Source: Nannocystales bacterium
Lineage (GTDB): Bacteria > Myxococcota_A > Polyangia > Nannocystales > Nannocystaceae
DNA length: 64,000 bases
NCBI GenBank assembly: GCA_050633305.1
Contig: JBOEGF010000018.1
Span: 704,001 to 768,000 of the forward strand
Direction: 5' to 3'
The notes under the pieces were generated by a model. The model was not told where the DNA came from and ran no database searches. It was given only the letters and a program-made list of their open reading frames with translations. Numbering within the stretch: position 1 is the stretch's first letter; each line of letters starts with the position of its first letter. This document shows, in pieces, positions 31,539 to 36,751 of this stretch. A program made the position numbers and the translations under genes.

Positions 31539-33782
31539 CTACCCGATGAACGAGCGCAGGTAGTACGCAACCTTGAGGGTGACCGCATGGAACGGGTCGG
31601 CCTGTGCCGTCGACCCGGCCGGCAGGTTGTTGCGGTAGACCAAGAACATGTCGCTTCCCGGGAGGAAGCGCCATCGCAGCCGACTTTGCAGCCCGACCCG
31701 CTCCGATCCCGGTGAGAGGTCCAGACGTACGAGGTTGTCGAACGCCAGGTTCCGTGTGATCGCGATGTCGACGTTTCCATTGGCGAAGCCGAAGTTGAAG
31801 TCTTCGTCTCGGGATTGGAAACGGCCGACCAGGTGGGTGTAGGAGGCTCCGAGCGTGAAGTGCTTGCCCAGGCGGACGGTGGTCGATGCGCTGGGTTGGT
31901 GTGCGGCTCCGCCAAACAGTTGGATGAACTCGTAGCTGAGGTTCCCACCGACGACGCGTCGAGAGGGCAGGGCCGCGTAGGTCCGGTTGCGAAATCCTGA
32001 GTAGTCAGATGACTCGATCGTCTCGCCGTACAGTTCGAAATCCTCCTGCACCACGTCCACAAAGTGCGCGAACGTGTTGCCGATGTTGGCGCCGTTGGCC
32101 CAGTCGAGCTGCAGGTAGCCGCTGGCTTCTTGGCCCAACCGGGCGTCGTACTCAGGCGTGGTTTCCACCGAGAAGGTTGGGCCGAAGTTGACCTCCCGTA
32201 TCGTGGCGTTTTTTGGACGAGGGGCGAACACGAGCCGAGCCTGCTGCCGCGTCGCGTTGGTGCGGCGGTAGAAGCCAAGCCGTGGATCGAAATCGTCATC
32301 GCTCCACAGCCACGACACCCCGGGCCGCACGTACAGCCCGCGATATTCCAGGGAGCCGTACGCTGAGGAGCCGATCTCCGGGGGGGCGAGCGGGAGTTCG
32401 GGCTCGTCCGGAGGCGGGGGGCGGTCCGGCGCCTGCTCTGCCCAGGTGCCCGCGACGAATCCGTAGCCCTGGAGTTTTCCGTCGGCCGCAATGAGCTGCG
32501 CATCGACCCCCCCAGCGGCGTCGTCGTGGCCGGTTGTCCCGACGCGGTGGCGCCCCAACAGCATCATCCCGACGTTGAGTTCTCGTGTGGCTTGCACCCG
32601 AATCCGACCCACGGTGAAGCTCTCTGGGCTGCTCGCTTGAACGCCTCGGGTCGGTTCATCGGTCGCGCCCAACGTCTGGACTTGCAGGAGCCCGTACTGG
32701 ATCACGCCCGTGCGGCCGTAGACCTTGGCACCGCCCAGAATCGGGACCGGGCTCCCTCGCTGTAACCCGATTCTCCGAGAGAAGAACAGCTGTGCTTCGC
32801 TGCGGCGCCCGAAGTTGAACACGTCGAGGCCGTTGATGAAGAACGGTCGGCGCTCGGGGAAAAACAGGGGAAATCGGTTCCGTGCGACCTGAACCGCGTC
32901 CGCTTCGACCTGCGCGAAGTCGGTGAGCAGGCTGGCTTCGGCGTAGGAGGCCGCGCCGAGCTGGACGCGAAAGTCGGCCCCGGTGGCGACGTTGGGTCGA
33001 CGCGTGGGGTCGGCGCTAAACGAGCGGTCGAAGGACGTCTGCGCAAGCAGGTATGGGGTGGCCTCGAAGGCGCGCCCGCCCCGAATCCGCTCCAGCCCCT
33101 CGAGGGTGCCGAACTGACTTGCGGCCATCGCCGAGCGCGGTGGAACGAACAGCCGCCAATCGTAGGTCGCGTTGTCCGTGGGCACATCGCGGGAGAAGTT
33201 GAGCCCCATCGTCGCGACGTCGGCGCTCTTGATCCCAAGAACCGCGAACGGGATCCGGTACTCGACAGAATACCCGTCGTCCCGTCGAACGGTCTCTGCC
33301 GTCCACACGCTGTCCCACTCGGTGATGAAGCTCTGCCCATCCTCGAGGCCGAGGATGTCGATCTGCGCGCCGTCGGCGTTGACCCCGAAGCTGTAGGCGT
33401 TGCGTCGGGTGCGTGTCGGGTCGATCTTCACATAGACCGTGTCGTCCGAGAAAATGCCGCCGTTGTCTCGGCGGAGGGTTCGGACGATGACTTCGCCCGG
33501 ATTGGACTCCGCTTCAATGAAGAAGTAGAGGTACTGGTCGTCGTACGCGACCTTGAACTCCGTGCGCAGGGGCGCGTCTTGGCCGAGGTTGGGGGACCGC
33601 TCGCGAAAGCGATCCTCGGGAGGCGCGAGGGCCCAGGTCTTCTCGTCTGCGCGCCCGTCGATGACCATCTTGTCCACGGTTCGCACTGCGACATAACGCC
33701 GAGGCTGCGGGGTGATGGGCTCGGCCGAGCCGGTCGCTGCAGGCGCAAGGGCGAGCACGACACCGGTAAGAGTTGCGAGCAT
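31539..33782 (-). CDS. CBM9-like + DUF5916 outer-membrane protein
   Basis: IDGRADE..W, YDDQYLY, YSVEYRIPF; DFAQVEAD..RFPLFFPERRPFF; LFFSRRIG. Confidence 0.8.
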   Translation of the reverse strand: MLATLTGVVLALAPAATGSAEPITPQPRRYVAVRTVDKMVIDGRADEKTWALAPPEDRFRERSPNLGQDAPLRTEFKVAYDDQYLYFFIEAESNPGEVIVRTLRRDNGGIFSDDTVYVKIDPTRTRRNAYSFGVNADGAQIDILGLEDGQSFITEWDSVWTAETVRRDDGYSVEYRIPFAVLGIKSADVATMGLNFSRDVPTDNATYDWRLFVPPRSAMAASQFGTLEGLERIRGGRAFEATPYLLAQTSFDRSFSADPTRRPNVATGADFRVQLGAASYAEASLLTDFAQVEADAVQVARNRFPLFFPERRPFFINGLDVFNFGRRSEAQLFFSRRIGLQRGSPVPILGGAKVYGRTGVIQYGLLQVQTLGATDEPTRGVQASSPESFTVGRIRVQATRELNVGMMLLGRHRVGTTGHDDAAGGVDAQLIAADGKLQGYGFVAGTWAEQAPDRPPPPDEPELPLAPPEIGSSAYGSLEYRGLYVRPGVSWLWSDDDFDPRLGFYRRTNATRQQARLVFAPRPKNATIREVNFGPTFSVETTPEYDARLGQEASGYLQLDWANGANIGNTFAHFVDVVQEDFELYGETIESSDYSGFRNRTYAALPSRRVVGGNLSYEFIQLFGGAAHQPSASTTVRLGKHFTLGASYTHLVGRFQSRDEDFNFGFANGNVDIAITRNLAFDNLVRLDLSPGSERVGLQSRLRWRFLPGSDMFLVYRNNLPAGSTAQADPFHAVTLKVAYYLRSFIG

Positions 33783-33785
33783 CGG

Positions 33786-34505
33786 CTAGAAGAGGGACTG
33801 CTGCTCGGGCGCAGGTGCTGGAGGGTCGATCGGATCGAGACACTCCGGGTCGTCATTGCGTACGTCGCTGACCCTACGGGATACCGGGGTGCTGACCAGC
33901 CAATCGTCGGCGATCGGTTGCAGGAACTCGCTGAGCTCCCCCACAGCTTCGGGTGTTCGAGCCCGGGGCGACCACCGGAGCCAGGCGTCGGCTCCACGGG
34001 CATCGAGGATCACGGGCATGCGGTCGTGGTGTGGCGCGACGAGTGGGTTGGGGCGCGTGGTCAGGACGGTGAAGTTGCGAGAGACCTCGCCGGAGCTTGG
34101 GCTGACGTCATCGCGGTAGAGACCGGCGAAGACGAACGGTGCGTCGTCGGGCCGATGAAACCAGTAGGGTTGTCGGGCTCCCTTGGGCCCGCTCCATTCG
34201 AGGAAGCCATTGGTCACCACACCGCATCGGTGAGTCCACACTGCGTCGCGGAACGTCGGCCGGACGTGCATGGTTTCGCTCCGCGCATTGATCATCGGCC
34301 CGCGGGGACTTGGGAATCCCCACGTGCCCCGAGCAACGGCCGGCCTCGGCGCCTCCGGCTCGAGGCACACGATCCAGTGAGCATCGGAGGGCGCCACGTT
34401 GAACCGCGGCTGGTAGGCCTGGGCCAGCGACGGGTTGAAGTCAGCGTCGAGCGCCTGACCCACCGACACGTAGTCCGCTGTAGTCAGGGTAAACCGACCG
34501 CACAT
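33786..34505 (-). CDS. SOS response-associated peptidase (SRAP/YedK/HMCES) abasic-site protein
   Basis: N-terminal MCGRF, FNVAPS, INARSET, GFLEW, HDRMPVIL. Confidence 0.95.
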   Translation of the reverse strand: MCGRFTLTTADYVSVGQALDADFNPSLAQAYQPRFNVAPSDAHWIVCLEPEAPRPAVARGTWGFPSPRGPMINARSETMHVRPTFRDAVWTHRCGVVTNGFLEWSGPKGARQPYWFHRPDDAPFVFAGLYRDDVSPSSGEVSRNFTVLTTRPNPLVAPHHDRMPVILDARGADAWLRWSPRARTPEAVGELSEFLQPIADDWLVSTPVSRRVSDVRNDDPECLDPIDPPAPAPEQQSLF

Positions 34506-34708
34506 TAGGAGATCTCTCCTGGCCCACGCGAGAACCGCCAGGCAGCGGGTTCTCCGCATTCGTGTCGGTCGCAGTTTGAACGGCGGCCTGCGGGTTTCTG
34601 AAGCGTCGCGTCATTGCTCGCTGCCAAGCCCGTGGGGCTGCTGACGAAGAGATCTGCGAGAAACCCGCTCCCGAGCACGGCAAAGCTCTACCGCACCCAA
34701 CGTGGGTT

Positions 34709-34717
34709 TGCTATATC
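34709..34717 (+). promoter_or_regulatory. Extended -10 element (TGcTATATC)
   Basis: TG-n-TATATC about 7 nt upstream of a strongly structured non-coding segment. Confidence 0.5.
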
Positions 34718-34724
34718 CATCCTT

Positions 34725-34960
34725 GTTGAGTGTGGCCTAGCCGACCGGGGCTTCCCCCCTTCCGCATCCAACCCCGGTCGGCTAGGCCCCCAACGTTTTA
34801 TCCCCATGAGTTCCGGGTCTGAATCCGGGCTTCTGGGGTTTCGCCTTTTGGTTCAACTCCGGGCCCCCACCCGAGGGCTGAACCAGGAAACGCAACTCTG
34901 AGAGGAGGCCCCCACCGAGCTGGCGAGGGGAGCGAGTTGCGCGCGGGCGAAACGTTGAGA
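34725..34960 (+). ncRNA. Candidate structured small RNA with C-rich loops
   Basis: 17-bp perfect stem 34734-50/34772-88 with loop cttccccccttccgcatccaa; then a long imperfect hairpin 34791-34957 with many G-U pairs and an apical ccccca loop; no credible ORF. Confidence 0.55.
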
Positions 34961-35200
34961 ACGGCATCATCCTGCGCCGTCACAGATCAGACACCGGGTC
35001 TTCGAGTTCTTCCGGGCTCCGCTCGGGTTTTTTCACCCCCGCCTGCGCTACCGAAACTGCCTCCCCGCGATGGTGCGCAACAGGCTGCCATTGCTTCCGA
35101 AGAGCCAACACCGCACCTGCGTTGGTGCTGGGGGCTGTCATCCCCGAGTGTCGCAATGCGAGTCGCTTTCGGAGGCGAGCAAGCGTGCGATCCTGCACGG

Positions 35201-35848
35201 GTGGTCGACGCCGGAGAACCTGAAATGGTCCGAGCTGAGGAACCCCTACCCAGTTCGGTCGCGGTCGCCGGGCTCGTCCTCGCGGTGAGCAGTGCACTCC
35301 CGTGGACGCCAGAGGGGCATTCGTTCTTGGCTCTGCTCCGCTCCGAGTTCTCCCGTGGTGTGCTCGAAGGACTGCTGATGATGGTCGGGTTCGGCTCGCC
35401 ATTCTTGTTTGGCATCGCAGTCGCGGTCGCGCCCATGGCCTGCCCGCCCGCGGTTGCTCGTCGCATCCTTCGTGTCCCGGTCGCGTTCATGCACAGCCAA
35501 CTCGTCTTGGTCGCGCTGGTGTTGTGGCTCTCCGGGGTCTCCGTGGCCGCGGTGCCACTGCTCGGCTTTGCGTTGGTGTCCGGAGTCCGACTTGCGGTTC
35601 ACACAGCACGGGCTCACGCGGAAGGTGATGGGCCGCGGGTCGGCTGGTACGTGCGGTGGGGCGGCATGGTCGTCGCCGCAATCGCGGCGTGGATGGAGCT
35701 GCAGCGCTCCGGAGACCTCGTGTTCGGCTGGGGCCTGCACGTGGCGCTTCTGGCTGGGCTGGGCATGGCGGGTGCACTTGCTGGACGCGCTCTGGGTTCG
35801 GCGGCGCCGGGGCTCCCCGAGGAGTCTCGCCCCTCGACCCTCTTCTGA
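35201..35848 (+). CDS. Multi-pass membrane hypothetical protein
   Basis: About 6 hydrophobic segments; start uncertain (35156/35201/35225). Confidence 0.65.
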   Translation: MVDAGEPEMVRAEEPLPSSVAVAGLVLAVSSALPWTPEGHSFLALLRSEFSRGVLEGLLMMVGFGSPFLFGIAVAVAPMACPPAVARRILRVPVAFMHSQLVLVALVLWLSGVSVAAVPLLGFALVSGVRLAVHTARAHAEGDGPRVGWYVRWGGMVVAAIAAWMELQRSGDLVFGWGLHVALLAGLGMAGALAGRALGSAAPGLPEESRPSTLF

Positions 35849-35884
35849 TCGATGCGCGTGTGTTCCACGACCCTCGAAGACGCG

Positions 35885-36751
35885 CTAGGGGAATGAGCCC
35901 TTGGCGCCCGCTTCAAGAGACGTGCAGCCCGTGGCGTGTTCGCAGCGTCGAACCACGCTGTTGCCGATGACTTCGTAGGTCGATCCATGCACGAGGATCG
36001 CGGTGTCTTCGTCGATGCCGTATCCGATGCGCTCGGGGTGGCGTGAGAGGATCGCGAGGAGCCGGGGTTCGCGTTCCTTGGCGAGGAAGTGTTGGTCGAC
36101 GATCACGCCTGGGAGAACGCCGAAACCGACATCTTCGACCGGGTCGGGGTTGCCGCGTCGAATGATGACATCGGAGAGAATCGCTGCGCCGGCGGAGTAG
36201 CCTCCGACGATCCCGCCGCGCAGAAGGACGGCGTGCAACGCTTCTTGGACCTTCGTGTCGACGTAGGCGTCCCGCAGTCTGCCCTGCGCCCCGCCGCCGA
36301 GCCACACGCAGTCTGCGTCTTGTAGCGGGGCGAGAAAGCCCCGTTCGTTCGCGCGCGCTGGGTCGAGCGTGTGCAAGACATCGACCTGCCCCACGCGGTC
36401 GCGCCAGCGCTTGGGGAGCTTCTGCAGCGTTGCCGGGTTGCTCGCGCCCTCCGCAGCGGTGGGGATCAGTACGAGCTTGCCGTCGGCACCGCACACTTCG
36501 CAGAAGCGCTTGATGATGTCCGCGCGCAGCGGGCCACCTCCGTGGGCGAGCACGGTTCCCACCAGAGGGACCGAGACACGACGGGAAGGAGGAGGCGGTG
36601 GTGGGGGGATATCGAAGCGTGGCAACGGCGCGGGCGTGCGGCGTTCCGGCTGCGGTGTGGTGTCGAACACTGGCGCATCGACGCGGGTGGGCTCTGGCTG
36701 CGGTGTGCCACAGCCTGCGAACCCTAACGCCGCGATGATCAGTCTGCGCAT
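35885..36751 (-). CDS. Cyanophycinase-like serine peptidase (S51), lipoprotein
   Basis: Lipobox FAGC; WLGGGAQ.RL, GYSAGAA, VDQHF..RE.RL, GIDEDTA. Confidence 0.85.
   Translation of the reverse strand: MRRLIIAALGFAGCGTPQPEPTRVDAPVFDTTPQPERRTPAPLPRFDIPPPPPPPSRRVSVPLVGTVLAHGGGPLRADIIKRFCEVCGADGKLVLIPTAAEGASNPATLQKLPKRWRDRVGQVDVLHTLDPARANERGFLAPLQDADCVWLGGGAQGRLRDAYVDTKVQEALHAVLLRGGIVGGYSAGAAILSDVIIRRGNPDPVEDVGFGVLPGVIVDQHFLAKEREPRLLAILSRHPERIGYGIDEDTAILVHGSTYEVIGNSVVRRCEHATGCTSLEAGAKGSFP

Follow-up and report, generated by a model that had tools for sequence, protein, structure and literature searches.

Does the long palindrome between two divergent genes of a Nannocystales bacterium encode a functional RNA and, if so, which part matters, what controls it, and what might it do? 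The window is the whole stretch of DNA analysed (64,000 nucleotides, G000:C18:704001-768000, where G000 is the genome under study). The hairpin lies within a 720-nt space, between a leftward SRAP gene and a rightward gene, encoding a membrane-protein-like product, that starts at 35225. The initial annotation had proposed a new structured RNA here, comprising a short perfect stem followed by a long rod. The genes, and the parts of the RNA, are as follows.

31539 to 33782, minus strand: gene for a CBM9/DUF5916 exported protein (Pfam PF06452 and PF19313), the usual divergent neighbour of the RNA; the protein has a signal-peptide-like start
33786 to 34505, minus strand: SRAP peptidase gene (Pfam PF02586, E 7.8e-45), a divergent neighbour in some genera only
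35225 to 35848, plus strand: membrane-protein-like gene without Pfam or NCBIfam match, a downstream neighbour that is not constant across the family
34725 to 34794, plus strand: conserved RNA core, made of terminal helix, asymmetric internal loop, 17-bp stem and 21-nt loop
34725-28 with 34791-94, plus strand: terminal helix of 4 bp, GUUG/CAAC
34734-50 with 34772-88, plus strand: perfect 17-bp stem, its letters checked in place
34754 to 34769, plus strand: near-invariant C-rich loop sequence, a C run of variable length and then UCCGCAU (invariant columns in alignments A2 and A5); the full 21-nt loop spans 34751-71
34795 to 34985, plus strand: 3' extension (the rod of the initial annotation), lineage-variable and branched, with a U run, local hairpins, a three-way junction, an apical CCCCCA hairpin and an end hairpin at 34961-80

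A conserved 70-nt core with a variable extension

What is conserved is not the rod but the initial 70 nt (34725-34794). Folding of the interval 34724-34799, which holds this core, is much more stable than that of shuffled sequences (z -7.19, 0 of 200 shuffles). In an alignment of 27 sequences, 97.9% of 513 cells are paired, and double changes occur at 9 of 19 stem pairs. Neither shuffled nor slid controls reach such values. Note that the aligned sequences are related, so covariation counts overstate the number of independent events. Covariation extends to the terminal helix, which reads GUUG/CAAC, GUCG/CGAC or GGUU/GGCC in different lineages and has a longer form in L091. Hence, the core ends at 34794. 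The G residues of the basal internal loop are conserved. Among congeners, core identity is 96-99% (6 of 6), against 48-82% for the extension, which varies from 16 to 246 nt in length across loci of the family.

The initial annotation had argued for a plus-strand RNA from G-U pairs. In the 27-sequence alignment, G-U combinations occupy 33 cells at 11 pairs on this strand, compared with 2 A-C cells at 2 pairs. Since G-U cells far outnumber A-C cells, the folded RNA is on the plus strand. While the comparative data favour the plus strand, single-sequence folding does not (z -2.86 on the plus strand and -4.13 on the minus strand).

We next consider how widely the RNA occurs. BLAST finds a single copy in G000, and matches in 20 of 60 relatives (17 of 35 within the bacterial family), mostly limited to 34660-34800. 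A covariance model recovers one copy each in 33 of 72 family genomes, covering 9 of 17 genera. Outside the family, 1 of 132 genomes sampled from the class was matched, at a tandem repeat judged to be chance. Pattern scans yielded 20 loci from genomes and 23 from metagenomes. Fifty distinct members remain after four false rows were dropped: L033 (a tandem repeat), L114 (coding), and L128 and L141 (no family stem or promoter). Cultured carriers include Plesiocystis pacifica SIR-1 (L039), in which the RNA adjoins gap and the promoter P3 described below is missing, and Paraliomyxa miuraensis SMH-27-4 (L044), which has all three of the predicted promoters. Genera g2, g3, g4, g5, g8, g9, g11 and g17 gave no match, nor did 6 of 11 g14 genomes; model searches with looser filters were likewise negative in 5 genomes of g2, g4 and g8. 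In these cases absence is not proven.

The RNA gene occurs beside the CBM9 or SRAP genes, beside gap in either orientation, or elsewhere, making three unrelated neighbourhoods. Because these are unrelated, and both orientations relative to gap are found, the hairpin RNA is encoded by a stand-alone gene rather than forming a leader. Small ORFs were considered and rejected; a plus-strand ORF of 95 codons has no Pfam match, and indels in the loop break its frame. An inserted SRAP gene separates the promoter block from the CBM9/DUF5916 gene in g1, g7 and g13 only.

Could the palindrome instead act as DNA, as a terminator or as a mobile repeat? It is long, perfect and located between genes, and a U run follows the hairpin at many loci. 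Furthermore, the RNA contigs described below might be DNA. Against this, the loop is invariant and 47 of 50 loci have a promoter at 7-8 nt upstream. The main site has no upstream sense gene to terminate. A mobile repeat, of the REP or MITE kind, is rejected; each carrier genome has one copy, dispersed copies are not found, and the plasmids and viral contigs searched contain no match. We consider all such explanations extremely unlikely. Conversely, it is highly probable that this is a real, uncatalogued and lineage-specific family of functional RNA. The central proposal of the initial annotation, a new myxobacterial non-coding RNA on the plus strand, has therefore stood up; the element is single copy, conserved and covarying, and is neither 6S RNA nor Pxr. 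An Rfam scan of 33500-36500 produced no match to the RNA, with 6S unmatched up to E 10. One match to mir-324, outside the feature, was rejected as chance.

The rod fared less well. It had been described as a rod-like imperfect hairpin of about 167 nt, built from four helices and compared with 6S RNA. In the ensemble for 34724-34985, forcing the rod costs 6.8 kcal/mol compared with a branched fold. One of the helices, tggttca/tgaacca, is well supported (pair probability about 1.0) and caacgttt/aaacgttg is weak (0.06-0.32), while tcccc/gggga and gggcttct/ggaggccc have a probability of 0.00. The latter two are also broken by G34908A, G34930C and A34931G in two RNA contigs of relatives. An alternative helix, 34891-98 with 34934-41, is supported by the paired changes A34894G and T34938C in contig X5. 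Nor are the apical C-rich loops supported as a family feature; the extension varies in both length and sequence across lineages. A 40-nt stretch (34849-34889), with the apical CCCCCA hairpin, is nonetheless invariant in five close relatives, including L002, L003, L137 and L138, whose neighbouring hairpins have diverged.

A two-fold switch had been proposed in addition, with CAAC at 34791-94 pairing to either of two GTTG sequences. The letters are indeed as quoted: TGCTATATC at 34709-17, GTTG at 34725-28, CAAC at 34791-94, and a second GTTG inside 34950-57. The switch is plausible in G000, where the two folds have probabilities of 0.68 and 0.32 and differ by 1.0 kcal/mol, and the best folds of L004 and L006 include the alternative pairing. 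It is limited to the genus and is not a family feature; most members have no partner in the extension for the alternative pairing. An 8-nt piece of the loop has a second copy in 3 of 16 long extensions, compared with 0.06 expected, and this possibly reflects one event. The loci are L136, L139 and L149, the second copy is about 30 nt into the extension and, in L139, it occupies an open hairpin loop.

Predicted promoters flanking the RNA

Three promoters are predicted around the RNA. P2 and P3 were missed by the initial annotation, and P3 is just outside the interval that it covered.

34709 to 34717, plus strand: P1, extended -10 element of a predicted housekeeping promoter, TGCTATATC, with the start predicted at 34724-25
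34685 to 34713, minus strand: P2, predicted divergent housekeeping promoter (-35 TAGCAA, 17 nt, -10 TAGAGC), overlapping P1
34990 to 35033, minus strand: P3, ECF-type promoter (A/T tract 35028-33, -35 CCGGAA 35010-15, -10 GTGTC 34990-94), directed towards the RNA, with a predicted start near 34985

The P1 signature TGnTAy is present in 47 of 50 loci. In G000, the hexamer TATATC also precedes a tRNA-Val gene. Other tRNA promoters of this genome have similar -10 hexamers, most without the last T. Two extra tRNA gene clusters, C13 (26362-26583) and C27 (100925-101282), resemble an array on a mobile region. P2 is found in 39 of 50 loci and, in all 39, the spacer is exactly 17 nt, even though 15-19 were allowed. 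This promoter presumably serves the leftward genes.

Sequencing runs give a weak hint of expression. We examined 8 of 24 listed runs; seven are RNA and one (X1) is probably DNA. The core is covered by 6 of the 7 RNA runs, with X4 matching only 34613-61. Of six informative RNA contigs, all from relatives, four begin no more than 15 nt away from the predicted start (at about 34710, 34721, 34722 and 34735), and these fit the start near 34724 that had been expected. Whole RNA contigs run from 34722 to 34965 (X5) and from 34735 to 34971 (X10), whereas none stops at the 3' end of the core. Such contigs place the 3' end in this genus at about 34965-71, close to the 34960 first proposed, and fit a predicted long form of about 250 nt. 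Two further contigs, X18 and X19, continue leftwards through P1. Note that all of these contigs are strandless, come from relatives, and may be DNA.

P3 is positioned 54-284 nt downstream of the loop, with a fixed spacer between CCGGAA and GTGTC. It is present in 37 of 38 loci beside the CBM9 or SRAP genes, and in 0 of 7 beside gap; the motif occurs in reverse orientation at 1 of 48, and the background is 4%. A terminator-like site at 35011-27 is better read as P3, since the tract is A in some relatives and T in others, and its hairpin is not conserved. An ECF sigma factor gene (G000:C24:316026-316703, minus strand) has the P3 motif upstream, and is followed by a gene for an anti-sigma factor with a FecR domain. 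Orthologues of the sigma factor are encoded in 67 of 72 family genomes, and the motif is upstream at 32 of the 38 orthologous loci examined.

With a matrix trained on other genomes, 24 non-coding matches scored above 17 bits, compared with 5-8 for column-shuffled matrices. The latter were used because a control on the opposite strand was not separated from the signal (19 for the signal versus 12 for the control above 16 bits). Among sites with a gene ahead, the promoter of the ECF gene itself scores top. After P3, the next 11 distinct sites in G000 precede seven lipoprotein-like genes (called by eye from the signal peptide), the ECF gene, one signal-peptide-like gene and two that are other or unchecked. 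For one regulon lipoprotein, all five orthologues have retained the motif upstream, compared with none of four distant paralogues. Lipoproteins with Ser/Thr/Asp-rich linkers dominate the regulon. Judged from this bipartite motif, ahead of the ECF gene and of co-oriented genes, P3 belongs to a real family of predicted ECF sigma promoters. Since ECFs usually autoregulate, according to the available text of PMC7826278, and the motif precedes the sigma gene, the ECF sigma of C24 is the likely reader of P3; this match depends on autoregulation logic only.

We reasoned that the overlap between P3 transcription and the RNA might be incidental. In that case, a real sRNA would act in trans and P3 would simply add ECF-dependent transcription of the SRAP and CBM9/DUF5916 genes. 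Consistent with this, P3 is lost whenever the RNA adjoins gap, the CBM9/DUF5916 protein has a signal-peptide-like start resembling other regulon members, and two contigs, X18 and X19, continue past P1 to the left. However, G017 retains P3 at a locus with no leftward gene start, where the upstream ORF is directed towards the RNA. The site scores 28.7 bits (the maximum of 3000 random sequences is 14.2), and its motif is degenerate. Conversely, P3 is missing before the CBM9 orthologue in G028, a gene with no adjacent copy of the RNA. The leader would also be unusual, being about 250-530 nt long and containing both an opposing promoter and the 17-bp hairpin; most well-scoring regulon leaders are shorter than about 130 nt. 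Finally, P2 would already serve the leftward genes. G017, G028 and the presence of P2 suggest that P3 goes with the RNA, and not only with the leftward gene, although each uncoupling case is one genome. Incidental overlap is a somewhat unlikely explanation.

A different possibility is that the working RNA is the minus-strand product of P3, resembling MicA or RybB or acting as a CsrA sponge, with P1 making its antisense. Within the genome, P3 outscores all other sites of its class, albeit for a matrix trained on orthologous sites and so biased. The minus strand folds as well in single-sequence tests, has two GGA motifs in its loop and, in close relatives, CAGGAYG in the 5' hairpin. CsrA is encoded in 62 of 72 family genomes (at C32:90795-90950 in G000), but its presence does not follow the RNA. 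Sponges of the CsrB/Rsm type have many ANGGA motifs in hairpin loops. Here, only 0-2 occur per minus-strand transcript, and we rejected this class. The G-U bias described above favours the plus strand. Minus-strand ORFs after P3 are not constant, being 37 to 103 codons or absent across loci. The seven gap-linked copies keep the loop, stem and P1 in the absence of P3. We regard a minus-strand product as very unlikely. Because P3 is missing from these seven copies, and from L013, the RNA appears to work without it.

A possible base-pairing RNA silenced by antisense transcription

How might the RNA and P3 act together? The reading that we favour is of a base-pairing sRNA, similar to 6C RNA, that is shut off by ECF-driven antisense transcription across it. 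As a complete mechanism this is tentative, and we would put it a little short of an even chance. During growth, P1 would make the RNA, in a long form of about 250 nt here, perhaps trimmed to the core. The open C-rich loop (34754-34769) would be the mRNA-pairing surface, recognising G-rich translation-start regions with no need for Hfq, as in 6C RNA. Once the anti-sigma factor releases the ECF sigma factor, P3 would fire. Collision between transcription from P3 and P1, together with loop-to-loop pairing with the antisense RNA, would then remove the sRNA and free its targets. The best target candidates are the ECF sigma mRNA, at its 5' end, and the leader of one regulon lipoprotein; such targets would create a positive feedback loop. 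Hfq was not found in G000. Pairing of the 6C kind is suggested since the loop is C-rich and the host is GC-rich and without Hfq.

Targets are the least certain part, and the start of the ECF sigma mRNA is a weak candidate. This mRNA, which looks nearly leaderless, begins with a 10-bp bulged match to the loop that lies over the start codon. In 19 of 32 orthologous loci, by way of five different sequences, pairing of the 5' end with the loop beats shuffled loops (p <= 0.03). The positive loci are in g1 (5/6), g7 (1/1), g10 (11/11) and g16 (2/2). No such pairing is seen in g15 (0/6), g14 (0/2), g13, g6 or g12, all of which bear the RNA, nor at the locus of the non-carrier g17. The match may reflect the first residues of the protein. 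Ranked by energy, the ECF start is 1840th of 8402 start regions.

For one regulon lipoprotein, the leader contains a match to the loop of 11-13 bp in 3 of 4 g1 genomes. In the fourth genome, as in g10 and g15, this match is degraded. As a group, regulon leaders are not enriched for loop pairing (2 of 19 at p <= 0.05, mean p 0.45). In five genomes, the 11-nt complement of the loop is no commoner than a reversed control, and the 24 non-self matches share no gene. Second-codon usage likewise indicated no shared target. It is unlikely, in our view, that the RNA forms a complete toggle within an envelope-sensing circuit. In such a circuit, loop pairing over the start codon would repress both the nearly leaderless sigma mRNA and the regulon lipoproteins. 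The sigma factor, freed by its FecR-type anti-sigma factor, would in turn transcribe the antisense of its own repressor and lock the regulon on.

Alternatively, the loop might bind a protein, either a pyrimidine-binding or an RNA polymerase-associated factor, with the RNA acting as a decoy or scaffold. No conserved mRNA target was found, the basal internal loop has conserved G residues and, at three tRNA promoters of G000 (C4, C7 and C13), the discriminator CCGCATCC after the -10 element has the letters of the invariant part of the loop. Since tRNA discriminators are C-rich anyway, that match may be chance. The length of the C run varies, as expected for pairing with G-rich leaders, and Ro60/TROVE was not detected in G000 or in genera g1, g10 and g16. 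We judge protein binding to be quite unlikely, and retain base pairing, with antisense control by P3, as the preferred reading.

Comparison with known regulatory RNAs

We compared the RNA with described kinds. Likeness to 6S RNA extends only to the overall length of the long form; here, there is no rod with a central bubble. With RF00013 unmatched, two rod helices at probability 0 and a variable extension, 6S was rejected, and G000 encodes its 6S RNA elsewhere (C32:316129-316308, 62 bits). Bacterial Y RNAs are encoded beside Ro60 and have a GNCGAAN0-1G motif and a tRNA-like domain, as described in the available part of PMC4201824. We rejected this class also, because TROVE matches are missing from G000, g1 (0/6), g10 (0/11) and g16 (0/2), and the 5' end is without the motif. 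The TROVE profile does not follow the distribution of the RNA. Full-length TROVE/Ro60 genes are found in genera g14 and g12 (L111-L116).

Pxr of Myxococcus xanthus is, similarly, a lineage-restricted myxobacterial sRNA, and long and short forms are plausible here too. In the available text of PMC5684412, Pxr is reported from Cystobacterineae and has three stem-loops, pxrR and pxrK upstream, and a sigma54 promoter. Conversely, our RNA has one conserved hairpin and a sigma70-type extended -10 element. There is no match to RF01812 and the neighbours are SRAP, CBM9/DUF5916 or gap, so Pxr was rejected. Whole-genome searches for Pxr matched nothing, but controls were likewise unmatched, making them uninformative. 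An M. xanthus ncRNA survey and a paper on Pxr distribution are cited in the accessible text of PMC8538405. In the literature searched, which largely excludes subscription journals, no publication describes this RNA family or its design. Among myxobacterial sRNAs in the literature found, only Pxr is well studied, and it has been reported from a different branch. The Nannocystaceae family is a second conserved, lineage-specific family. The analysis also defines, as predictions, an ECF sigma factor, its promoter and a lipoprotein regulon.

The RNA likely works most like 6C or cuckoo RNAs. According to the available text of PMC6486639, the C-rich loops of actinobacterial 6C RNA (6C/B11 in M. tuberculosis) pair with mRNAs, and are proposed to do so without a chaperone. 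The similarities are a run of six C residues in a hairpin loop, and a GC-rich host without Hfq. However, 6C RNA has several C-rich loops, whereas here there is one long hairpin with a 21-nt loop and a terminal helix, no Rfam match, a different phylum and a facing ECF promoter. The cuckoo RNAs of Alphaproteobacteria, as far as described in the available text of PMC4615179, share an invariant C-rich loop motif on a stem, and some members of our family repeat the motif. Cuckoo RNAs have 2-4 adjacent hairpins, each with CCUCCUCCC. Here, the motif is different and usually single copy, and the stem is well conserved; we rejected membership of the cuckoo family for the first two reasons.

Judged from sequence, the distinctive feature of the family is its conserved, opposing ECF-type promoter, a predicted design kept across eight genera. 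MicA and RybB are ECF-controlled sRNAs of envelope stress. The likeness is the link between an sRNA and an ECF regulon for envelope proteins. The sign is reversed, however, because here the predicted ECF promoter would give rise to antisense RNA and not to the sRNA itself. If P3 works as predicted, the ECF sigma factor would not produce an sRNA but would eliminate one, through antisense transcription.
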